DNA of 43,626 nt from Planctomycetota bacterium (lineage in GTDB: Bacteria; Planctomycetota; UBA1135; UBA2386): positions 1-43,626 of the forward strand of contig JAYZDB010000201.1 of assembly GCA_036338025.1 (NCBI GenBank), written 5' to 3'. Each line of letters opens with the position of its first letter. Position 1 is the first letter of the stretch. Under the pieces are notes generated by a model, which did no database searches, was not told the origin of the DNA, and saw nothing but the letters and a program-made list of their open reading frames with translations. A program made the translations under genes and the position numbers. Below are positions 26-27,019 of the stretch, in pieces.

Positions 26-102
26 TGGTGGGCGATACTGGACTCGAACCAGTGACCCCTAGCTTGTCGAGCTAGTGCTCTAACCAACTGAGCTAATCGC
101 CC
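26..102 (-). tRNA. tRNA-Val (anticodon GAC), 77 nt with encoded CCA
   Basis: The reverse complement folds by hand into a perfect cloverleaf. Acceptor GGGCGAT/ATCGCCC; D stem GCTC/GAGC; anticodon stem CTAGC/GCTAG with loop UCGACAA; variable loop GGGTC; T stem ACTGG/CCAGT with loop TTCGAGT; discriminator A; CCA. Confidence 0.9.
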
Positions 103-12508: not shown

Positions 12509-14227
12509 TCAGCCCAGCAGGTCGCGCGCAACCGGCGGAATCGCGATCACCATGCCGACAAACTCAGCGCTTCCATCCATCCCAGCCTGGACCGCGCCCA
12601 GCAACAGATCCTCCGCGCACAGCTTGTCCCGGCATTCGCCAGGCAGTTCGACCCGCAGCAGCTCATCGCCTTCCTCGACCGCGATCTCGACCGCATCCGC
12701 CGCCACCGTGACCACCCGGAACAGCTTGCGCTCGATGCCGTCAGCCATCTTCGACCCGCTGAGTGCCAACCCGGCAAGGTCCAGTCGCGCGACATGATCG
12801 ACAAAGGCCTCGCGCACACTGACCAGCAGCGGCGCCAACTCGAAACACTGGGTCTCCTCGGCCCACCCAAAAAACCGCTCCAGCGCTGTGAAGACCACGC
12901 CGACCTCGCGGGTCCTTGCGCCCGGGCTGCTGCCGAGGTAGGTCTGCATGAGCAGGCGCAGCAGATCGGAGATCGTCACTTCCTCCAGATCACGGTACGG
13001 CACCGGCGCCTCGCGCTGGATCACGACGAGTTGTTCCAGCACCGCGGTATCACCACCTTGGTCGGCATCGGTTTCCCAGAGGTACTCTGCGATCAGGGGG
13101 CGCATGTTGCCATCGACCGGCAATCCGTCCTCCTCCACAACCGCCTCGGTGTGCCCCACCATCTGATCTGCCTCGGAAAACACCTGTTCGAGATCCTCGC
13201 CTTCGGCCAGTCCGGCCTCGATCCTCGCCCGCACATCAGAACCCAAGCCGAGAGCCGACAAATCCACACCCTCATCCTTCTGGGGCAAGCGCTCGTGGTC
13301 GGCTGGCTCCTGATCGTCAGCCGGTGAGGACTCCTGACTGGCTGCCCTCGTGGCGCTCTCGGGCATGTCATCCTCGACCGCCGGCAGCCCCTGGTTTCCG
13401 ATCTGACGCTGCTGCCAGATCTGCAGCATGATCTGTCGAGCAGCTTCCAGGTCTACCTCCGAGTCGAAGGCTATCTTCTCGAGCAGCGGATCGATGATCA
13501 GACCCGGACGAGGGATTCCGCCCAGGGATGCGCTGATGCTGGTCGCGCTCAATGCGTCTGGATCGATCCCTCCCTCGCGAAGACATTTCTCCAGGTCCGC
13601 TTCCAGGTGCTCGACCGGCACACCGCTGGGAACTGCCGCCTGGCTTTCATCTACAGCCTGACCGCGGCCCCGGAATAGCAGGTGTTCGATCTCCGCCTGG
13701 CTGAGCCGCCGCCCGAGATTCATCGTCTGGACGTCCTTGCGGAACGCAGCCGCCAAATCCCGTGCGTCACGCTGCACCGCCATCGCCACCGATGCGATGT
13801 AGACATCCAGCGGACCATCGAATACCCGCCCGATGAACAGGTCCCCAGGTGACAAGTCGAGACCTTCGACCTCGGCAAGGTCGTGGGTGCGATCATCCTG
13901 GAGATCGACGACGACATACTCGCCGGCATTCATGCCGCTCAGCTGAAACACCCCCACCATGCTGTCCTCGAAACTCTGGCGCTCGTCATCAGACATTGGC
14001 AGGAGATCGACGGGGATCCCACCGAGGACATCGCTTTCGCGCTCCAAGAGGAACCACTCCGCAAAGCGCAGCAGCGCATTGGCGTCGTTCTCCTTTGCCT
14101 TCGGATTAGCCTGGAAGAACTCGCGCTCCGCCCGGGAAACCTCCGATTTCAGGCCAGTGTTCGCCCGCACGTTCTCCATCAGGCGGGCAAGCAGGCATTG
14201 GAAGTCAGCGGCTTCGGCGGGATTCAT
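12509..14227 (-). CDS. large acidic hypothetical protein
   Basis: 572 aa, strongly D/E-rich throughout. It has no TM segment or signal peptide, and I recognise no motif. The antisense 290-aa ORF is R/L/H-rich, as expected for the reverse of an acidic gene. Confidence 0.7.
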   Translation of the reverse strand: MNPAEAADFQCLLARLMENVRANTGLKSEVSRAEREFFQANPKAKENDANALLRFAEWFLLERESDVLGGIPVDLLPMSDDERQSFEDSMVGVFQLSGMNAGEYVVVDLQDDRTHDLAEVEGLDLSPGDLFIGRVFDGPLDVYIASVAMAVQRDARDLAAAFRKDVQTMNLGRRLSQAEIEHLLFRGRGQAVDESQAAVPSGVPVEHLEADLEKCLREGGIDPDALSATSISASLGGIPRPGLIIDPLLEKIAFDSEVDLEAARQIMLQIWQQRQIGNQGLPAVEDDMPESATRAASQESSPADDQEPADHERLPQKDEGVDLSALGLGSDVRARIEAGLAEGEDLEQVFSEADQMVGHTEAVVEEDGLPVDGNMRPLIAEYLWETDADQGGDTAVLEQLVVIQREAPVPYRDLEEVTISDLLRLLMQTYLGSSPGARTREVGVVFTALERFFGWAEETQCFELAPLLVSVREAFVDHVARLDLAGLALSGSKMADGIERKLFRVVTVAADAVEIAVEEGDELLRVELPGECRDKLCAEDLLLGAVQAGMDGSAEFVGMVIAIPPVARDLLG

Positions 14228-14343
14228 GGTCGTGGGCTATTCCGTAAGGATTTGAGAAAAACGGCAATCCTTTCGGCTTTGCTGCAAAATAGCCTTCACC
14301 CGTGGCGGGTGAGACGATTTCCTTGTAGTTCTCCAAACCAGCA

Positions 14344-16873
<2,530 letters not shown>

Positions 16874-16891: not shown

Positions 16892-17137
16892 TCAGGCGGG
16901 TTGGACGTCCGTGACCATCGGCAGCACCTCTTGCAGGGCGATCTTGATGCCCTGCTGCATGGTGTGGGTAGAGGATGGACAACCGTCGCAGGCCCCCACC
17001 AGGCGCACCCGCACGACCCCCTTGTCGGTCATCTCGACGAACTCAACGTCCCCGCCGTCATCAGCAAAGAACGGCCGCAATTGCTCCAGTACGGCCTCGA
17101 CCCGTTGGCGCACTTCGGTCTCGGACAGGGCTGTCAT
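16892..17137 (-). CDS. NifU C-terminal-domain (Nfu-type) Fe-S cluster protein
   Basis: 81 aa. Contains LRPFFADDGGDVEFVE...VRLVGACDGCPSS...TMQQGIKIAL, the canonical Nfu CXXC domain. Confidence 0.88.
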   Translation of the reverse strand: MTALSETEVRQRVEAVLEQLRPFFADDGGDVEFVEMTDKGVVRVRLVGACDGCPSSTHTMQQGIKIALQEVLPMVTDVQPA

Positions 17138-17913: not shown

Positions 17914-19428
17914 ATGCCCGACACCGCCTACCAACGACTCCTGAACCGGGTACGGGGAAACCATCTGCTCGGGGCGACCCGGGCAGTTCTCGACTGGGAT
18001 CAACAGACCATGCTACCGCCAGGCGGGGTCGAGTTCCGCGCCCGGCAACTCAAGCAACTCGCTGAACTCAGCCACCAGAGAGGCACCGCGCCGGAACTGG
18101 CCGAGTTGCTGAGCCTCTGCGAGGACCAGGCCGCCCTGCTCGTTGATCCGACCAGCGATTCGGCCACCAACCTGCGCGAAATCCGCCGCTCCTACGATCG
18201 GGCGACACGTCTGCCACGGGAGCTGGTCGCAGAACTCGCCGAGACCCAAAGCCTGGCCCAGAACACCTGGGCCGAAGCACGCAACCGCGATGACTTCGAG
18301 AGCTTTCGTCCCTGGCTGGAAAAAATGGTCAAGCTGATGCGCGACAAGGCACAGTGCCTGGCGGAACCGGGGCAGGAGGAGTGGGACGCGCTGGCCGATG
18401 ATTTCGAGCCCGGGGTACAAGCCAGCGATCTCCACCGTCTGTTCCGGGATCTGCAGGCCGAGTTGACGCCCCTGCTCGGTGACATTACCAACAACGGCAG
18501 CCCGCCGGCGCGGCGTTTCCACCAACACCCCGCCCCCACCGACGCCCAGGAACGCTGGGTCCGGGCGGTCGCAGAGAGCATGGGATTCGACTTCTCGCGC
18601 GGACGGCTGGATCGCTCAACCCATCCGTTCTGCAGCGGAACGCACCGCGGCGACGTCCGACTCACCACCCGCTTCCACGATGCCTTCGTAGTCGATGCCC
18701 TGGGTTCCACCATGCACGAGGCGGGCCACGGCATCTACGAGCAGGGCCTGCCAGCCGCCCACGTCGGCACGCCACTCGGACAGGCGACTTCACTGGGGAT
18801 CCACGAGAGCCAGAGCCGATTGTGGGAGAACCACGTTGGCCGCTCCGAGGCCTTCTGGACCTTCTGCCGGCCCCTGCTACTCAAGCACCTCGGCGCCGAA
18901 TTCGAGGTCTACAGCGCGGCGGAGATGTACAGCACCGCCAATCTCGTCACCCCCGACTTCATCAGGGTGGAAGCCGACGAAGCCACCTACAACCTGCACG
19001 TCATCGTCCGCTTCGAGTTGGAACTCGCGATGATCCGCGGCGAGTTGGAAGTCGCGGATCTTCCGGGTGCCTGGCGCGAAGCCTACCGCCGGTATCTCGG
19101 CGTCGAAGTTCCTGATGACACCCGTGGCTGTCTCCAGGACGTGCACTGGTCGTGCGGCCTGTTCGGTTACTTCCCGACCTACACCCTCGGCAACATCTAC
19201 GCGGCGCAGTTCTTCGAGTCTGCCCAGGCAGCCCTGCCGGACCTCGATGATCAGGTCGCCAGCGGCAACTTTGCAGCACTGAAACACTGGCTCAACGCGC
19301 ACATCCACGAATCCGGTTCACGCTTCCGCGCTGCAGATCTTTGCGAACGCGTGACCGGTCGCCCCGCGGACATCGCACCTCTGATGCGCCACCTCGAAGG
19401 CAAACTTCGGCCGATCTACCAACTTTGA
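17914..19428 (+). CDS. carboxypeptidase Taq-type (M32) metallopeptidase
   Basis: Contains HPF, HEAGHGIYEQG (HExxH), GIHESQSRLWEN and DVHWSCGLFGYFPTYTLGN. ATG at 17914 is preferred within track ORF 17869..19428. Confidence 0.9.
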   Translation: MPDTAYQRLLNRVRGNHLLGATRAVLDWDQQTMLPPGGVEFRARQLKQLAELSHQRGTAPELAELLSLCEDQAALLVDPTSDSATNLREIRRSYDRATRLPRELVAELAETQSLAQNTWAEARNRDDFESFRPWLEKMVKLMRDKAQCLAEPGQEEWDALADDFEPGVQASDLHRLFRDLQAELTPLLGDITNNGSPPARRFHQHPAPTDAQERWVRAVAESMGFDFSRGRLDRSTHPFCSGTHRGDVRLTTRFHDAFVVDALGSTMHEAGHGIYEQGLPAAHVGTPLGQATSLGIHESQSRLWENHVGRSEAFWTFCRPLLLKHLGAEFEVYSAAEMYSTANLVTPDFIRVEADEATYNLHVIVRFELELAMIRGELEVADLPGAWREAYRRYLGVEVPDDTRGCLQDVHWSCGLFGYFPTYTLGNIYAAQFFESAQAALPDLDDQVASGNFAALKHWLNAHIHESGSRFRAADLCERVTGRPADIAPLMRHLEGKLRPIYQL

Positions 19429-19733
19429 CCGGCTGGCCGCTGCCAATCGCCGACTGTCCCCACCGCCATCCAAGCCGCCGATCCAAAGCTGCACCTTCCG
19501 TCGCAACCCGTAGTAGGGTATACAGTTCAGACAACAATCCCGAGATGACCGCCGACCTGGTCTGGTGACCCAGATACGCAGAGGGGATAGCAGATTCGGG
19601 ACGAGGGTCTTCCAACGTACCTTATACCGACCCAGAACCACGGTCGGCAGAGATCAGGACGGCTCCGGCGACTATCCTGCCGCCTGCTCAGCAATCCCAC
19701 CCGACCGTCCCGACCCAAACAGCCCGCGCCATC

Positions 19734-22004
19734 ATGAAACGCACCTGGATCACTGCTGTCCTTGCGCTCGTCTTCGCCGTTGTCGTCCCGGCACAATCCG
19801 CCGAGGAGATCCGTTTCCGCCAAGGCCAGGCCAAGAAGCTCGTCGACCTCGGCTCGCGGGCCCTGAAGAAGGGCTTCCCGAACAAGGCCAAGATCATCTT
19901 CATGATGGTGCTCAACCTCTACGACGAAGATAACGCCGACGCCCACAAGGCACTTGGCCAGAAGAAGTCCGGGACTGCCTGGCTCGATGATCCGAACTTC
20001 AAGTACCCCAGGGTTGACAAGCCCTCGCCAGCAGCCGCTTCCGCGCTGCTGAAGGACACCGCGAAGACCTTCAAGCAGTTGGTCGACGGCCACTCGCGAA
20101 TGGCAAAGAAGTATCTGAAGGCCGGGCAGACCCCGCGGGCTCAGAATCACTATCGGATGATCCTGCGTTTCGCACCCGACAACGAAGAGGCCAGGAAGAA
20201 CCTGGAACTCGTACAGGTCGCTGACGGTCTATCGGGAACCTCGACCGAACAAGAGATCTACAAGCGCGGCCTGCACATCGCGGATGCCGTCAAACTCGAA
20301 GGGTCAAAGGACTACGTCGTCGAGAAACTGCCTGACACCAACCGCAACGCGATCCTCGATGGGGCCAACGTCGAGTACATCAGCGTCAAGTCAGAGCACT
20401 TCATACTGCGTGGTGATTACGAAGAAGCGATCCTCAAGGAAGCTGCCCTGTGGGCAGAGCGCGCCCTGCGGGTCGCGCAGGCTGCTTTCAGTGGTTACGA
20501 CGACATGTTCTTCAGCGATGTTGCGCAGTGGCCCATCAAGGAGTTCTCCTTCTTCCAATCCAAGGACACCTACAAGCAGATCATCCTCGCGCACCAGAGC
20601 AAGATCGGGAACAAGGAGCAGGTTGAGTTCCTGCTCGAATACACCTCCGGAACCACCCTCGGCAACATCGGGGTGTCGGCCACCAACAGCAAGAAGGGTG
20701 CGCTGGACGGGGCTGTCCGTCGGGTAGCCCGGATGTACTCGTCCATGGGACCAGCTGCCTTGAGTGAGGGCATCGGCCACACCTTCGTCGGCTTGCTACT
20801 GCGCAACAACCGCGCTTTCCTGGTCGATCGCAAGAAGCAGATCGGCACCCAAACCGATGAAGATGACATCGCGAAGTTCAGCCCCGACATGGACATGTGG
20901 GAAGAGCTCGCAGTCGAACAGGCCTGGAGCAAGACCACCCTGCCAGCGATCCGCCTGCCGCTGATCACCGCCGACAAGTTCGATGACAACATGCGGATCA
21001 AGTCCTGGTCGTTCTGCCACTACCTGATGTTGCGGGATCCGGCACTGCTTCGGCACCTGAGTCGAACCGGCCGGCTCAAGGACGTCGTCGCCATCGAGAA
21101 AGACTTCACCAAGAAGGCCGGCGTCAGCCTGGCGCAACTGGACAAGGAGTGGAAGGACTTCTTCACCGGCGCAACCCCGGTGATGCGGGCCATCCGCAAG
21201 CGCGAAGATCCGATGCTGTCGGTCAGCAAGGACGTGAAGAAGTGGCTCACCGCGTTCAACAAGGTCCGCACCAAGACCTTCCATTCCGCACCCGTCAACT
21301 GGAGCGCGCGATTTTCGACCCGTTGTCGGCATCACGCAGACTACCTGGCAAACAACAAGCTTGCCGGCCCTGAGCAAGAGCAACGACAGGATCCGCAACT
21401 GCCGGGTTCGACGCACGAAGGCAACATGTTCGCCCAGATGGCAATGGTCAGTTCCAACGCCAGGAATCCCAAGGCCGTCATCGAAGGGTGGATGAACTAT
21501 CCGGGCTACCGGGACCTGTTCTTCGTGAATACCCTGAAGACCATCGGGATCTACTCCGACAAGAAGACCCTGGTGCTCAACGTCGTGCAGGGCCTGATCG
21601 TGCCGCGCACCGGCAACTTCTACCTCTACCCCAAGCACGCGATGACCAAGGTCCCGGTGTCTATCAAGGTCGCAGACCTCGGCCCGGAGATGCTCAAGAT
21701 CCTCAAGCAGCACGGCCATGAAGGACTCAAGGAAGTCGGCTTCCCGATCTCCCTGCATTTTGGCAACAGTGGGCGGATGGGTGAACGCAAGTCATACCGA
21801 TGCAAGGTGATCGCCAACGGTCGTGATGGTATCGAGGGCTTCATCCATATCGCCGACGATGGCAGCCACCGTCGGACTTCGTCGCCCGGCCTGGTGGTGT
21901 TCTATCCGCTCAAGCCGATTCGGAAGGGTTCGACGGTCAAGGTGTCGTGGAGCTTCAAGCGCGGCAAGCGGATCGAGACTGTCGACGCGACCTACTATCA
22001 CTAG
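19734..22004 (+). CDS. secreted multidomain protein: signal peptide, TPR-like repeats, central uncharacterised domain, degenerate CAP/SCP-like domain, beta-rich tail
   Basis: 756 aa. The signal peptide is MKRTWITAVLALVFAVVVPAQSA. TPR-like helices include KKYLKAGQTPRAQNHYRMILRFAPDNEEARKNLE. A CAP-like block is RCRHHADYLANN...STHEGNMFAQ...VIEGWMNYPGYRDLFFVNTLKTIGIY. The protein is Lys-rich. Confidence 0.8.
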   Translation: MKRTWITAVLALVFAVVVPAQSAEEIRFRQGQAKKLVDLGSRALKKGFPNKAKIIFMMVLNLYDEDNADAHKALGQKKSGTAWLDDPNFKYPRVDKPSPAAASALLKDTAKTFKQLVDGHSRMAKKYLKAGQTPRAQNHYRMILRFAPDNEEARKNLELVQVADGLSGTSTEQEIYKRGLHIADAVKLEGSKDYVVEKLPDTNRNAILDGANVEYISVKSEHFILRGDYEEAILKEAALWAERALRVAQAAFSGYDDMFFSDVAQWPIKEFSFFQSKDTYKQIILAHQSKIGNKEQVEFLLEYTSGTTLGNIGVSATNSKKGALDGAVRRVARMYSSMGPAALSEGIGHTFVGLLLRNNRAFLVDRKKQIGTQTDEDDIAKFSPDMDMWEELAVEQAWSKTTLPAIRLPLITADKFDDNMRIKSWSFCHYLMLRDPALLRHLSRTGRLKDVVAIEKDFTKKAGVSLAQLDKEWKDFFTGATPVMRAIRKREDPMLSVSKDVKKWLTAFNKVRTKTFHSAPVNWSARFSTRCRHHADYLANNKLAGPEQEQRQDPQLPGSTHEGNMFAQMAMVSSNARNPKAVIEGWMNYPGYRDLFFVNTLKTIGIYSDKKTLVLNVVQGLIVPRTGNFYLYPKHAMTKVPVSIKVADLGPEMLKILKQHGHEGLKEVGFPISLHFGNSGRMGERKSYRCKVIANGRDGIEGFIHIADDGSHRRTSSPGLVVFYPLKPIRKGSTVKVSWSFKRGKRIETVDATYYH

Positions 22005-22017
22005 ACTGAAACTCCAG

Positions 22018-22878
22018 ATGAAAGTCTCCAGCTTCCTTATCGCCCTGCTCACCCTGTTCCTCGCCTCCCACCCGGCAGCCCAGATCGATCTGAAGGCGAT
22101 CCAGAAGAACATCGTCCCGGTCCAACTGGCGACCAAGACAGATGACAAGGGACTCCAACAATGGGATGAGTACCACCAGAACTGCCCAGCCTGCAAGACC
22201 AAGAAAATCCTGGAGTGCGGCAACTGCAAACACCTCGAAGAACCAAAACTGTGCCCCGAGTGCAAGACCACCCGCAAAGCACCTTGCCACTACTGTGCTG
22301 GTACCGGCAAGCTCGCCGACCCACTGAAAATCGCGCCCTGTCCGGGCTGTCAGGGGCACTCCGTGTTCATCTGCCATATGTGCGCCAACACCGGCCGGAT
22401 CAAGATTGCCGGAGGCGGCAAGAAGGGCGTGAAGTGCAACGTCTGCAAAGGCAACGGCGGTCGCGCCTGCACCGTGTGCAGCGGCAATCGCCAGATCCAA
22501 TCCTTGTTCAAGGGCAAGGTCGGCAGCACCGATCTCAAGAAACTCCGCAAGACCAGGTCCGCCATCGACAAACTGATCAAGGACGTGGTGAAATTTTCCG
22601 CTGTCGGCCAGAGCCGAATCGACCGCAAGAAATTCGCCGCCCTGTTCAAGAAGGCGAAACCCCACCTGCCGATGACCAAGAAGTTCCTGGCCCAGGTGGA
22701 TCAGCTCTCGAAAGCTCTCGACCAACCCCGGTTCAAGGGCAACGACCGCACCCAGATGGCCAGCATGGACCGTGTTCGGCGCTACCTTCTCCACTACCTC
22801 CTGCACCAGAACCAGGTTCTCGATGCTTGTATCAAACGGGCCGAGTTCAACGCGCAGGCCGTCAAGCCGGGCAAGTAG
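22018..22878 (+). CDS. secreted protein with eight CxxC motifs (DnaJ-type CxxCxGxG zinc-finger-like) and a Lys-rich helical C-terminus
   Basis: ATG at 22018 is 13 nt after the upstream stop. The signal peptide is MKVSSFLIALLTLFLASHPAAQ. The CxxC pairs are CPACK..CGNCK, CPECK..CHYCAGTGK, CPGCQGH..CHMCANTGR and CNVCKGNGG..CTVCSGNRQ. Confidence 0.8.
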   Translation: MKVSSFLIALLTLFLASHPAAQIDLKAIQKNIVPVQLATKTDDKGLQQWDEYHQNCPACKTKKILECGNCKHLEEPKLCPECKTTRKAPCHYCAGTGKLADPLKIAPCPGCQGHSVFICHMCANTGRIKIAGGGKKGVKCNVCKGNGGRACTVCSGNRQIQSLFKGKVGSTDLKKLRKTRSAIDKLIKDVVKFSAVGQSRIDRKKFAALFKKAKPHLPMTKKFLAQVDQLSKALDQPRFKGNDRTQMASMDRVRRYLLHYLLHQNQVLDACIKRAEFNAQAVKPGK

Positions 22879-22959
22879 GTCAGCCTGCTCCGCGTGCTCA
22901 TCGTGCCTCGCTACCTCAAATCGCCAGTCACCGCAGGCCGGGAGCCGGTTCGACTCACC

Positions 22960-25956
22960 ATGATCAATGCCATACGGCGGTGCTGCTGGTTCGCTGTGAT
23001 GTCGGCGGCCCTCCTGGGCCCAACCGCGGCCCAGACCCCGTCCAGCGCCCACTCCCTGGTCCGGGTTCCCAACCTGACCAAGGCCGAGCAGGCGAGGTTG
23101 CAGACCGTCAAGCGCCGCGCCCTCGACGCTGTCGGGCCAGCGGTCGTACACGTCATGGTCATGGTCGGCGGCATCCTGCGCATGCAACGCGACAGCACCG
23201 GTGTGGTGGTCACGCCGGACGGCCTGGTACTGACCAACTGGCGCCTGATCCGCGAAATGTCGCCGCGCAACGGCAAGAAGTCACGGCGCTCCTACTCACT
23301 CCAGGTCCGTACTGATAAGGGCGAAGAGCACCCCGCGAGCATCCTGGCCGTAAATCCCGACTACGACCTCGCACTTCTCAGGATCCAACGAAGCGACCGG
23401 GCGAAGATGCCCTACGCGAAACTGGGCGACAGCCACAAGATCCTGGCGGGCGAGACACTGCTGGTCTGCTCCCGACCCAACGAGAAGATCTACGCCAACT
23501 TCATTGGCGGCGCATCGGATTCGCAGGGCGACATCAAGATCGGCGAGCAGCGCATCGCCAAGGATGACATCCTGCTCTCAGACGTGAACATGAGGGTCTT
23601 CTCCGACGGCGCCCCGGTGTTCGACATCGCCGGCCGACTGCTTGCAATCGTCAATTCCGGCAAGGTCCGCGCGCCCCTGGGCAAGGACGCCACCGAGGCA
23701 GACAAGCTAGAACACGAGAAAGGCTACGGTTTCAGCATGCGGGTGCACGTGGCTCAAAGGCTGTTCCCGCAGCACCTCGGGAAACTCAAACCCACGTCCA
23801 TCCAATCGCCGTCGGTGGTCAAGGAGCGCGGCCTGTTATCCACCGGAGTCGCCAGGGTCAAAGATGCAATCGTGTCGGTGCGCCGCGCACGCGTCACCAA
23901 GATGCCGCGGCCGAGCCTGGTAGACCCGTACGGTAAGTTCGCACAGGATCCCTGTGGCTCTGGTGTGCTGGTTCATCGCAAGGGCATCGTGCTGACCAAC
24001 TCACACCTGGTCGGCGAGGGACCCGTATTGGTCACCCTCTTGAACGGCAAGACCTACAAGGGTTCGGTAGTCGCAAACCTGTCCGACAAGAACATCGCAG
24101 TAGTGAAACTCAAGGTGCCGACCAGCACCCGGCTTCCTAGCGTCGAGCTGGCCCGCTCCTCGGCGGGAATCCTCGGGGAACCGGTCGCCGCGGTCGGCAA
24201 TCGCTACGGGCACACACTCGGGGTCAAGATCGGTGTGTTGTCCTCACGCGAACGCAGCGGAGGTATCGGCAAGCAGCACAAGCGATCGATGGGACACCTG
24301 CAAACCGAGGCCAACATCTACCCCGGTAACACCGGCGGAGCACTGATCAACATTCACGGCCGACTGGTAGGGATCAATGACCTGAAGGCTGCGGTCGATC
24401 GTGCAGACCTCGAAAGTGCCGCCGCCCGGGCAGCCGAAAAGAAGGACATGACAATTGGCTTCGCTGTACCGATCGGTTGGATCGTCAACGAACTGCGGAC
24501 ACGACAGCCCACCATCGCCAAGGACCTCAAAGTACCGGACAAACACGCAACAGCTATTTCGTACAAGGATCGCGAGACCGTGGTCTCGAAGATTGTCGCG
24601 GCCCACGCCAACTGCTTCCTGAATGTCTTCGTCAAGACCGAGAAACTGCAGAAGAAAAAGACCGGCCTGCTGGCAGAACTGTTTCCAGAACCAGCCAACG
24701 ACGAGGATTTCCGCCTCCTGGGCCAGGGTTCAGGAGTGATCATCGATCCCTCCGGTCTGGCACTCACCAACTGGCATGTTGTGGATGCGGCGGTCTACCG
24801 GGATGGCTCGACTCGTAAAGACCACAAGGTGTTCGTCAGCTTGTCGAACGGCAAGCGTTACGAAGTCGAAGTGCTCAGCACCTCACGCAACGACGACCTG
24901 GCACTCCTACAGATCAAGAACCCCGAGCAAGACCCTCTGCAAGCCATCCGACTCGGTGACTCGGACGCCCTCAAGGTCGGCGATACCGCGATTGCTGTCG
25001 GCAACCCACATGGATTTGCCAGCTCCGTCACCGTCGGACTCGTGTCAGCCAAGAATCGGGACATCCTGATCAAAGGTCACGCCTTCATGGCCCGCGGCAT
25101 GATCCAGACCGACGCCGCCATCAATCCTGGGACCAGCGGCGGCGCGTTGATCGACCTGAATGGCTACCTGATCGGCATCAACAGCGCCGGCAACAGCATG
25201 GAAGCCAAGGTAGGGTTCGCGATCCCCGTCAACAAGGTCCGCCAACGCTTCAACGATACGCTGCTGGCCTCCGAAAAACTGCGCAGCGTCTACCTCGGCA
25301 TGGCGCTGGATATCAACGAGGCTGGCAAGGTCTTCGTCAAAAAGGTCCACGAATTCGGACCCGCCGTGGACGCCAAGATCCGAGTCGGCGACACCGTCAT
25401 CAAAGCCAAGGGGCAGCCAATCCACAACAAGCTCGAGTTCATCAAGCTGACCCGGGCTGCCGTTCCGGGACGACCATTCCCCGTCGTCGTGTCGCGCGAG
25501 GGCAAGACCAGGAAGTTCGTTCTCATCCCGGTGAGTGAAGCGGCCTGGTTCGTCTTCCGATACGCCGGATTCGCAGTCCGCGAAGTAAATCAGGCATCGC
25601 ACGCGAAACAGCTACAGCAGGCCGGCAGCGCCTCCTATCGCGAACTCACCGGCAACAAAGACGCTGGCTCCGACACCATGAAAAGTGGCCTGGTGGTCAC
25701 CCATGTCCACCCCGAGGCGATCGCCGCAGGAATGGACATCAAGCTCGGCGACATCGTGGTAGGCCTCAAGATGAGGGTAGTAGACATCCAACACGAACAC
25801 GGACGCAGCTACCTGGAGCAGATCACTGGACTCAAAGAGATGCAGGACTTCATTCGCCGCCAGTCGACGGTCAAAGGCCGGCAGATCGAACTCTGGGTCG
25901 CACGCCAAGACCAGGTCATCAAGGCCCAGGTGCTAGCCAAAAAACCCGCGAAATAG
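22960..25956 (+). CDS. HtrA/DegP-like protein with three tandem trypsin-fold domains and two PDZ-like domains
   Basis: ATG at 22960, or GTG at 22894. The signal peptide is MINAIRRCCWFAVMSAALLGPTAAQ. Three repeats follow the pattern G.GV...G..LTN.H.. / D.A.L / G.SGG. The C-terminal PDZ-like segments are YLGMALD...GDTVIKAKGQPI and GLVVTHV...LGDIVVGL. Confidence 0.85.
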   Translation: MINAIRRCCWFAVMSAALLGPTAAQTPSSAHSLVRVPNLTKAEQARLQTVKRRALDAVGPAVVHVMVMVGGILRMQRDSTGVVVTPDGLVLTNWRLIREMSPRNGKKSRRSYSLQVRTDKGEEHPASILAVNPDYDLALLRIQRSDRAKMPYAKLGDSHKILAGETLLVCSRPNEKIYANFIGGASDSQGDIKIGEQRIAKDDILLSDVNMRVFSDGAPVFDIAGRLLAIVNSGKVRAPLGKDATEADKLEHEKGYGFSMRVHVAQRLFPQHLGKLKPTSIQSPSVVKERGLLSTGVARVKDAIVSVRRARVTKMPRPSLVDPYGKFAQDPCGSGVLVHRKGIVLTNSHLVGEGPVLVTLLNGKTYKGSVVANLSDKNIAVVKLKVPTSTRLPSVELARSSAGILGEPVAAVGNRYGHTLGVKIGVLSSRERSGGIGKQHKRSMGHLQTEANIYPGNTGGALINIHGRLVGINDLKAAVDRADLESAAARAAEKKDMTIGFAVPIGWIVNELRTRQPTIAKDLKVPDKHATAISYKDRETVVSKIVAAHANCFLNVFVKTEKLQKKKTGLLAELFPEPANDEDFRLLGQGSGVIIDPSGLALTNWHVVDAAVYRDGSTRKDHKVFVSLSNGKRYEVEVLSTSRNDDLALLQIKNPEQDPLQAIRLGDSDALKVGDTAIAVGNPHGFASSVTVGLVSAKNRDILIKGHAFMARGMIQTDAAINPGTSGGALIDLNGYLIGINSAGNSMEAKVGFAIPVNKVRQRFNDTLLASEKLRSVYLGMALDINEAGKVFVKKVHEFGPAVDAKIRVGDTVIKAKGQPIHNKLEFIKLTRAAVPGRPFPVVVSREGKTRKFVLIPVSEAAWFVFRYAGFAVREVNQASHAKQLQQAGSASYRELTGNKDAGSDTMKSGLVVTHVHPEAIAAGMDIKLGDIVVGLKMRVVDIQHEHGRSYLEQITGLKEMQDFIRRQSTVKGRQIELWVARQDQVIKAQVLAKKPAK

Positions 25957-26036
25957 CTCTGAATGGCGCCCAAGCGGCGAACTTTGGCCCGCCGGCACTT
26001 GAGCCTTTGCCGTCCGCAGCGTACAGATTACATGCC

Positions 26037-26585
26037 ATGAACGTCCTCAGCATCCAACCGACTCCCAATCCCCTGGCCTACAAGTTCGTCGTCAACCAGG
26101 TCCTGCAGGCCGACGGTAGCCGCTACTACAACAACCCTGCCGAGGCAGCATCCGATCCTCTAGGCACCGCACTGTTCGCCATTCCCGGGGTGACCACGGT
26201 GTATTTCGCCCAGGACTTCGCGACCATAACCAGCGCCGAGGGCTCCAACATCGAGACCTTACACCAGCAAGTCGGCGAGGTGCTCAAGACCCACGAAGGT
26301 GGCACGAGCGCCCCAGCCACCGACAGCCCTTCGATGGTCGAAGCGGTGACTGATGACAGTGAGTTGCTCAACTCGATCAACGCCATGCTCGACGACCGGG
26401 TCCGGCCCGCCTTGGCCGGTGACGGTGGCGGCCTGCAGATCATCCGGCTCGAAAGCAAGGTACTGACGATCCAGTATGAAGGCGCCTGCGGTACCTGTCC
26501 CAGTTCGATCGCCGGCACCCTGGCTGCGATCCAGAACCTGCTGCAGAGCGAGGTCGACGAAGAGCTGAGCGTCGTCAGCGGCTAG
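26037..26585 (+). CDS. Nfu_N + NifU C-terminal domain Fe-S cluster scaffold/carrier
   Basis: ATG at 26037 lies within track ORF 26007..26585. The N-domain is LSIQPTPNPLAYKFVVN...IPGVTTVYFAQDFATIT. The C-domain is VRPALAGDGGGLQI...YEGACGTCPSS. Confidence 0.88.
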   Translation: MNVLSIQPTPNPLAYKFVVNQVLQADGSRYYNNPAEAASDPLGTALFAIPGVTTVYFAQDFATITSAEGSNIETLHQQVGEVLKTHEGGTSAPATDSPSMVEAVTDDSELLNSINAMLDDRVRPALAGDGGGLQIIRLESKVLTIQYEGACGTCPSSIAGTLAAIQNLLQSEVDEELSVVSG

Positions 26586-26647
26586 GCGGTCTACGCCCGA
26601 GCCTTGCACCAATTCCTCCTCCTGGAGCGGAGGCTCCAGCAACCACC

Positions 26648-27019
26648 GTGTCTTCGGAGCGGCCATTCCCGTTCGAATTCCGATGCCAGCGATCGGGCAA
26701 CTGCTGCTCGATTCCCGGTGGCGTGGTACGCGTCAGCCCCGAGGACATCGAAGCGATCGCGGATCACCTCGGCATGACGGTGGAGGCGACAAGATCCCGC
26801 TACCTGTCTGCCAGCGGTGAGCGACTCGCCGAAGGGCTATCGAGCCGCTGCGTGTTCCTGGAGGGCAGCCGTCAAACCAGTTGCGGGATCTACCCCGTGC
26901 GACCCGAAAAATGTCGGACCTGGCCGTATTGGCCCGAGTTGTTGGACAACCCCGAAGGCCTGCAGCGGGCGGCGGCCCTGTGTCCGGGAATCGTCCCAGG
27001 CCACCACGCCGGATCCTAG
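26648..27019 (+). CDS. YkgJ-family (UPF0153) cysteine-cluster protein
   Basis: 123 aa with a GTG start. Contains FRCQRSGNCCS (CxxxxxCC) and CVFL...CGIYPVRPEKCRTWPYWP. Confidence 0.78.
   Translation: MSSERPFPFEFRCQRSGNCCSIPGGVVRVSPEDIEAIADHLGMTVEATRSRYLSASGERLAEGLSSRCVFLEGSRQTSCGIYPVRPEKCRTWPYWPELLDNPEGLQRAAALCPGIVPGHHAGS

Follow-up and report, generated by a model that had tools for sequence, protein, structure and literature searches.

Contig JAYZDB010000201.1 of the Planctomycetota bacterium assembly GCA_036338025.1 (lineage Bacteria; Planctomycetota; UBA1135; UBA2386) was analysed over 43,626 nucleotides (nt), a stretch referred to here as the window, and carries at positions 19,734 to 25,956 three co-directional genes, designated A, B and C, all on the + strand. 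Gene A (19734-22004, +) is an open reading frame (ORF) for a multidomain protein of 756 amino acids (aa), gene B (22018-22878, +) encodes a cysteine-rich protein of 286 aa, and gene C (22960-25956, +) encodes an HtrA-family protein of 998 aa. All three products look exported, and the genes, which recur side by side at other loci, may specify the parts of a single proteolytic system of the cell envelope. The gap between A and B measures 13 nt, while that between B and C measures 81 nt from the ATG at 22960 or 15 nt from the GTG at 22894; the ORFs bear out the spacing given in the initial annotation, which had left the third start open and put the second gap at 15-81 nt. Homologue alignments begin at the ATG at 22960, and the 66-nt extension upstream is not conserved at the DNA level; the ATG is therefore favoured as the start of C, and the GTG at 22894 was discarded.

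Signal peptides occupy aa 1-22 of A, aa 1-22 of B and aa 1-25 of C, each consisting of a basic n-region followed by a hydrophobic core with an A-Q end. They were judged by eye, directly from the sequences, and the same pattern was present in the homologues inspected (45 of 45 for A, 19 of 19 for B and 7 of 8 for C), in agreement with the N-terminal signal peptide that had been attributed to each product. The A-Q ends, found in all three families, suggest cleavage before an N-terminal Gln and are reminiscent of the 'Q-rule' of Bacteroidetes. Export of B presumably proceeds via Sec, because a twin-arginine motif is absent.

In bacterial envelopes, quality control and processing that do not depend on adenosine triphosphate fall mainly to HtrA proteases, which are normally homo-oligomers whose subunits have a single protease domain. 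Protein C contains three such domains, recognised by Pfam as three Trypsin_2 stretches (E 7.8e-41 for the N-terminal half), and its catalytic positions were placed by an alignment of eight family members together with a self-alignment of the three domains. Domain 1 (aa 60-290; 23137..23829, +) has Arg-Asp-Asp at the triad positions and is classed as inactive; across the family its His position is occupied by His in most relatives, and the Ser nucleophile is replaced by Asp in seven of the eight. Domain 2 (aa 326-520; 23935..24519, +) is a variant with His-Asn-Thr at these positions, where Asn378 is invariant and the nucleophile position holds T, S or A. The canonical HtrA domain is the third (aa 581-768; 24700..25263, +), in which H606, D646 and S726 are invariant in all eight sequences; the His-Asp-Ser triad is found here and in neither of the preceding domains, just as the initial annotation had proposed in describing one canonical and two variant catalytic domains. 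Domain 3 matches HtrA of T. maritima (1l1j) at E 1.5e-38, and its mean pairwise identity is 0.68, as against 0.43-0.44 for domains 1 and 2; the closest solved relatives of C are HtrA, DegP and DegQ.

The protease domains of C are followed by a C-terminal PDZ domain, as in the HtrA family (PDZ domain 1, aa 778-853; 25291..25518, +; PDZ_2 E 2.1e-12), just ahead of which R775, S776, L779 and G780 are invariant. A second PDZ-like region (aa 859-998; 25534..25953, +) is weak when scanned as an isolated segment (PDZ_2 E 0.024, PDZ E 0.049), so that of the PDZ domains previously announced in the plural one is solid and the other is only a weak candidate. The Do-family model TIGR02037 aligns with C at E 1.7e-109, extending to aa 945, and its score of 366.7 bits lies under the cutoff of 416.2; the equivalog models for DegP, DegQ, DegS, HhoA and MamE give scores far under their cutoffs. 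Because every equivalog cutoff is missed, C is classified on sequence grounds as a relative of the HtrA family that belongs to none of its named subfamilies. When the C-terminal tails of A and B were considered as ligands of the PDZ domain, they proved not to be hydrophobic and no PDZ-ligand-like sequence was seen in them.

Among 5.8 billion proteins, only 13 are close homologues of protein B, and an exhaustive profile search returned 51 clusters at E <= 1e-30, mostly of 280-300 aa. The central region of B (aa 56-154; 22183..22479, +) contains exactly eight CxxC motifs, extended to the full CxxCxGxG at C90 and C140 only, and is read as two tandem zinc-finger units of the DnaJ/BSD2 type. The 13 closest homologues keep all 16 cysteines of these motifs, together with C271, without exception; in a set of 19 sequences reaching down to 29-33% identity, 15 of the 16 and C271 remain invariant, with C122 retained in at least 90%. 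The AlphaFold2 model of B has a predicted local distance difference test (pLDDT) score of 74.6, and its best fold match in the PDB is the zinc-finger domain of BSD2, a chaperone of Rubisco assembly (6ekb; template modelling (TM) score TMt 0.71, probability 1.0, E 0.12, 27% identity over 59 columns), which places the cysteine-rich domain within the zinc-ribbon fold, albeit at that E value. Weak profile matches point to BSD2 and to EMB2737, a plant DnaJ-type zinc-finger protein, and distant relatives of B show sub-threshold matches to BSD2_CRD. B itself matches neither PF00684 nor PF25436 (BSD2_CRD) at E <= 0.1, and scans against Pfam and NCBIfam assigned no family at threshold. The earlier description of B as a DnaJ-type protein with eight CxxC motifs holds for the motifs and for the fold, and does not extend to a match with the PF00684 profile.

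The remainder of B (aa 161-286; 22498..22875, +) is a helical bundle according to the model, with helices at 173-281 and a conserved end motif, C271-I-x-R-x-x-x-N, of which C271, R274 and N278 are invariant. Four proteins of about 680 aa (P0150, P0154, P0165 and P0166) carry a B-like domain, with eight CxxC motifs and the helical region, joined to some 400 aa of C-terminal sequence that contains TPRs. Such fusions hint, weakly and by analogy, that B-type domains may work with TPR scaffolds, A itself beginning with a TPR-like region.

The family of protein A comprises 71 homologous clusters, nearly all of about 745-790 aa, two of them being shorter partial sequences. All derive from metagenome genomes or contigs, and those with labels belong to Planctomycetota, save one partial sequence from a bin labelled Myxococcota. 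An AlphaFold2 model built on a 45-sequence alignment is confident (pLDDT 88.1, predicted TM score 0.85) and divides A into four domains. The N-terminal region (aa 23-190; 19800..20303, +) is helical and TPR-like, which the initial annotation had recognised as TPR; a PDB profile search (TPR region of OGT, E 0.003) and the helical hairpins of the model favour that assignment, while the Pfam matches to TPR (aa 118-150) stay below threshold.

The middle domain of A (aa 191-495; 20304..21218, +) adopts, according to Foldseek, a collagenase-like (gluzincin) peptidase fold, the best PDB matches being the peptidase domains of clostridial collagenases (4ar8 and 7z5u; probability 1.0, TMt 0.34-0.38). 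The gluzincin HExxH is not present: the family has x344-E-G-I-G-H349, where R, S, Q or T takes the place of the first His in 45 of 45 sequences. Column counts over the same 45 sequences show the motif E345-G-I-G-H349 (20766-20780, +) to be invariant, and E377, which lies 28 residues past H349, is nearly so. E345, H349 and E377 might form a residual metal site. Neither a Pfam peptidase nor any other Pfam family was detected in the middle domain of three family members, even at E <= 10; DUF1570, once suggested for this protein, was found neither there nor in 45 full-length sequences at E <= 0.01.

The third domain of A (aa 496-625; 21219..21608, +) is a CAP/SCP domain with a degenerate motif, as had been predicted. 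PF00188 matches aa 506-606 at E 3e-5, with 25.3 bits against a gathering score of 21.1, and is found in 44 of the 45 family members (best E 1.8e-9), and the fold is that of the SCP protein of B. anthracis (4ifa; Foldseek probability 1.0). At the place of the CAP motif, which we take to be G-H-x-x-N, protein A has an invariant P-G-Y/F-R-D; position 592, corresponding to the presumed motif His, is Tyr in 43 and Phe in two of the 45 sequences, H534 is invariant, and position 562, taken as that of the motif Glu, is unconserved and mostly Leu. The His and Glu motif residues that we assume for the CAP cavity are, as a set, not conserved in A. The C-terminal domain (aa 626-756; 21609..22001, +) is an immunoglobulin (Ig)-like beta-sandwich by its modelled strands and by Foldseek, which returned CopC (1m42, TMt 0.58) and the Ig-like domains of L,D-transpeptidases. 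Because HExxH is absent, the CAP motif is degenerate and the protein is made up of these four folds, A is predicted to be a scaffold of protein-binding folds and inactivated enzyme folds. Among the five enzyme-type folds of the three proteins there is one intact catalytic centre, that of domain 3 of C.

The relationship among the three genes was followed across further loci, numbered from L001 onwards, and the homologues originate from uncultured bacteria in metagenomes, including marine (Tara) and wastewater (NCBI assembly) sources and others. They are nearly all labelled Planctomycetota, and databases list all three families as 'hypothetical protein' or 'CAP domain-containing protein'; the metagenome scan for B used a narrow B alignment. 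The order A-B-C is collinear in the window and at L001/L002, L003, L004/L005/L007, L006, L011, L012 and L016, and the flanks differ wherever they are available, even at L012, whose A shares 87% identity with the window copy. In lineages whose A has 40-47% identity, this gene is convergent to a C-B pair (L008, L010, L014, L015 and L021), C having been split by the gene caller at L014. Wherever a locus offers enough sequence downstream of B, the next gene is C, as on the short contigs L023-L025 too, and A adjoins B-C, collinearly or convergently, in all loci but one. The association of A with C-B persists at L008 despite an insertion sequence (IS) element (Transposase_20), which lies with an unrelated gene of 285 aa between A and the convergent pair (13710-14480, -).

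Over nine loci, the identities that A, B and C show to the window copies rise and fall together (Spearman 0.88-0.95), which lends weak support to the unit because any set of genes from the same genomes would correlate to some degree. Taken together, the comparisons indicate that A, B and C truly belong together as a co-conserved unit. The initial annotation had allowed that the three genes might turn out not to be conserved together, and synteny across the loci rejects this, the linkage being kept.

Individual loci add variations to this pattern. At L013, a gene for a 279-aa protein (13965-14804, -) equivalent to A 496-754, that is, to the CAP and Ig-like domains only, stands beside B-C in place of A; no sequence resembling the N-terminal part of A was found upstream of it, and no signal peptide is evident at the start that was called. 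A short form, a truncated gene and a miscalled start are the possible explanations. At L004 (7698-9581, +) and L007 (13805-15688, +), an extra gene of 627 aa without a Pfam match abuts the stop codon of C; it occurs in that lineage only and could be an accessory component.

In base and amino acid composition, the three genes also stand apart. For A, B and C, the ratio K/(K+R) stands at 0.59, 0.74 and 0.52, respectively, compared with 0.08-0.38 in nine neighbouring genes, and the guanine-cytosine (GC) content is about 0.59-0.61 across the three genes compared with about 0.63-0.65 nearby. In the window and loci L001-L015, the genes lie 2-7 GC points under their surroundings, and A and B stay Lys-rich in every lineage (K/(K+R) 0.43-0.78), even in genomes of 72% GC where neighbouring genes hold 0-10 lysines. 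C is Lys-rich in the collinear-operon clade only; the contrast between Lys-rich products and Arg-rich neighbours drawn in the initial annotation applies within the window and, for the C family, is a property of one clade. Most of the lysines behind the bias are not positionally invariant. A conserved strong positive charge was rejected, as the isoelectric point (pI) ranges from 4.9 to 9.9 between clades, with 9.6-9.9 for the window copies and 4.9-5.9 for A and C of the convergent clade. Horizontal transfer from a donor of lower GC content is an unlikely cause of the anomaly, because the Lys bias of A and B is present in every lineage.

Signals of joint expression were also sought. A scan of 19300-26700 for sigma-70 promoters and intrinsic terminators gave no signal above shuffled controls and therefore speaks neither for nor against an operon. 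Among the three closest loci compared, little conservation is seen in the B-C spacer or in the region upstream of A. A GGTGAC box at about 19564-19569 in the window recurs 160-180 nt upstream of gene A at L001 and L012; it is found in these three closest loci only, against a background of 0.16 per 350 nt, and may represent an element of a promoter or operator.

Gene order, co-conservation, export signals, domain folds and surviving catalytic residues are direct observations, and an interpretation can be built upon them. The reading preferred here joins A, B and C as the exported subunits of a single dedicated proteolytic system of the envelope, periplasmic or at the surface, confined so far almost entirely to uncultured Planctomycetota; we consider its chances to be about even. 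C would be the engine, whose single live domain (H606/D646/S726) cuts, behind two degenerate copies of the same fold. Domains 1 and 2 would no longer cut and would most likely serve in assembly or in docking of a partner or substrate, by analogy with plant DEG7, and the degenerate copies may also enable a single chain to mimic the HtrA trimer. As in other HtrA proteases, recognition of peptide ends and gating of activity would fall to the PDZ domain. B would most likely be a holdase or adaptor, perhaps responsive to thiol or zinc status, which hands clients to C or restrains it, and A would most likely be the subunit that recognises the substrate or the surface. Physical interaction, the roles of the subunits, zinc binding and the identity of the substrate are what we infer in this scheme.

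A more elaborate version would make C a single-chain imitation of the HtrA trimer, its three folds arranged round a pseudo-threefold axis with one live site, gated by B as a secreted zinc or thiol switch and by A as a receptor of dead enzyme folds. This elaboration is unlikely; if true, it would represent a kind of extracytoplasmic proteolytic machine that had not been recognised before and is peculiar to a planctomycete lineage.

Several observations weigh against the reading of A, B and C as a dedicated envelope system. At L009, the sole exception to the linkage, neither B nor C occurs within 10 kb of A, which can thus also occur on its own, and A lies beside a tandem, diverged A paralogue of 762 aa (12689-14977, +; about 26% identity); A-type proteins may, on this evidence, also act on their own. 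Co-transcription of A-B-C is suggested only by the close spacing of the genes and the lack of a terminator signal above background. The TM scores of the collagenase-like match in A (0.34-0.38) are low. For B, the N-terminal four CxxC motifs are modelled with low confidence (pLDDT about 46-60), and the zinc-finger assignment is tentative, drawn from the Foldseek match at E 0.12 and from sub-threshold profiles; in an oxidising compartment, moreover, the cysteines might form disulfides instead of binding zinc.

Alternative explanations start from the same features. The foremost of them, itself unlikely, is that the three proteins form a secreted offensive or nutrient-scavenging complex, in which A binds an external polymer or the surface of another cell and C degrades proteins there, with no part in envelope housekeeping. 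Signal peptides on all three products, with no membrane anchor or lipobox, would suit such a complex, as would the folds of A (collagenase-like, CAP and Ig-like), which are typical of extracellular proteins; some HtrA proteases are secreted, that of H. pylori being an example. The very basic window copies (pI 9.6-9.9) would favour sticking to anionic surfaces, but this charge is not conserved, A and C being acidic in the convergent clade. The loss of nearly all catalytic capacity bar one HtrA centre would be odd in a complex devoted to digestion, and secretion-system genes are linked to the three genes at no locus examined.

A second alternative, somewhat more doubtful, is a dedicated maturation system in which C processes one client, possibly A, freeing its CAP and Ig-like part, or an envelope structure, with B as assembly chaperone, comparable to MamE/MamO. 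The tight linkage of the three genes speaks for this, as does the 279-aa protein of L013, a free-standing counterpart of A 496-754. A precedent is offered by MamE/MamO, where an active HtrA works with a repurposed, inactive partner of the trypsin fold (PMC4794232), and C has partial NCBIfam matches to both MamE and MamO. On the other hand, A shows no sign of a cleavage site, its family is uniformly full-length at about 745-790 aa, and no conserved fourth gene marks a client.

Third, and quite improbable, the genes could encode a metal- or redox-sensing and buffering module, in which B serves as a store or sensor of zinc or as a thiol switch, the degenerate sites in A (E345/H349) and in domain 1 of C bind metal, and metal or redox state sets the activity of the protease. 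The cysteines of B and the residual Glu/His motif of A are invariant, and MamO is a pseudoprotease of the trypsin fold that binds transition metals (PMC4794232). CxxC zinc knuckles, however, are usually structural, and the resemblance of the C-terminal domain of A to CopC, which might be quoted in favour, reflects a generic Ig-like fold. No metal transporters or regulators are conserved nearby, and the NifU-type genes of the window are absent at other loci. That A, B and C are mere neighbours with independent functions, as the occurrence of A without B or C at one locus might suggest, is highly improbable and already disfavoured, given that the linkage outlasts full turnover of the flanks, inversion of gene order and insertion of an IS element, down to 30-45% identity.

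The surroundings of the three genes in the window include an M32 carboxypeptidase, NifU-type proteins, thiC with a thiamine pyrophosphate (TPP) riboswitch and pheST, none of which is conserved beside them elsewhere. The two NifU-type genes and a gene with a CxxCxxCC domain flank the module at 16892-17137 (-), 26007-26585 (+) and 26648-27019 (+); because they stand beside the three genes at no other locus examined, the cysteine and iron-sulfur theme of the neighbourhood looks coincidental. The TPP riboswitch (Rfam RF00059, 65.7 bits) at 15196-15289 (+) falls within the mechanically called ThiC ORF (15008-16873), and the real start of thiC is therefore downstream of the riboswitch. A tRNA-Val (anticodon GAC) is located at the left edge of the window (26-102, -).

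The envelope system favoured here, formed by A, B and C, combines three unusual features: a chain of three protease domains of which one is active, a secreted DnaJ-type zinc-finger protein, as B is read, that is an obligate genomic partner of the protease, and a further partner apparently made of inactivated enzyme folds. The DnaJ-type zinc-finger proteins found described in the literature are cytoplasmic or plastid, unlike the exported B. If A, B and C work together, they would show how pseudo-enzyme domains and a cysteine-rich adaptor control an envelope protease, and they would provide a first functional handle on three families annotated only as hypothetical.

The absence of a described counterpart, claimed at the outset, is upheld in that no characterised equivalent of the three genes was found among Pfam, NCBIfam and PDB names or in the literature searched. 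More specifically, this literature yielded no periplasmic or secreted bacterial zinc-finger protein like B and no three-domain HtrA layout, and searches on bacterial pairings of a CAP protein with a protease turned up no account of the system. The individual proteins can nevertheless be compared with known systems. Protein C shares with HtrA/DegP/DegQ (MEROPS S1C) a signal peptide and a protease domain with the His-Asp-Ser triad followed by PDZ; it differs in the two extra degenerate HtrA-type domains ahead of the active one, in its genomic linkage to the partner genes A and B, and in its score below the TIGR02037 cutoff.

Among proteases with duplicated domains, plant DEG7 and yeast Nma111 resemble C in keeping copies without catalysis, presumably for protein-protein contacts. 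In DEG7, the active domain comes first. DEG7 possesses two protease domains and four PDZ domains, whereas in C the active protease domain is the last of three and the PDZ domains number two at most, so that the arrangement of one active and one degenerate domain with four PDZ domains is not reproduced in C; C is, in addition, bacterial, exported and accompanied by partner genes. The likeness is one of principle, offered as an analogy, and it is in DEG7 that a degenerate protease domain mediates trimerisation (PMC3194040). The MamE/MamO pair of magnetotactic bacteria, in which the pseudoprotease MamO (trypsin fold, degenerate triad) works with the active HtrA MamE (PMC4794232), likewise combines an active HtrA domain with degenerate-triad trypsin folds, as C does. 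These are separate, membrane-anchored proteins of the magnetosome island, whereas no magnetosome genes are present here, and the NCBIfam models of MamE and MamO match C only partially, with 209 and 146 bits, far under their 800-bit cutoffs.

For B, the nearest comparison is with the DnaJ-type zinc-finger proteins that lack a J domain, which are described as chaperones or thiol oxidoreductases in chloroplasts (PMC5818400 and PMC7865324). BSD2, ZnJ2, ZnJ6, PSA2, LQY1 and FIP have CxxC(xGxG) repeats in common with B, and some occur within the thylakoid lumen or membrane; FIP was isolated as an interactor of the protease FtsH5 (PMC5915565). BSD2 and DnaJ zinc-finger proteins contain four motifs, whereas B has eight, along with a bacterial Sec-type signal peptide and a C-terminal helical bundle. 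Protein A resembles the CAP/SCP/PR-1 family (PF00188) in its profile match above the gathering score and in its 4ifa-like fold, and departs from it in that the CAP domain is embedded in a four-domain protein of 756 aa, with Tyr or Phe in place of the presumed motif His and no conservation at the presumed position of the Glu. Similarly, the peptidase domains of ColT and ColG, clostridial collagenases of family M9, are the best Foldseek match of its middle domain (probability 1.0), from which A differs by the missing HExxH, the low TM scores and the lack of a Pfam peptidase match. On balance, we rate the three genes as a candidate envelope protease system built around an HtrA, in which the domain layout is without precedent and both obligate partners are uncharacterised.

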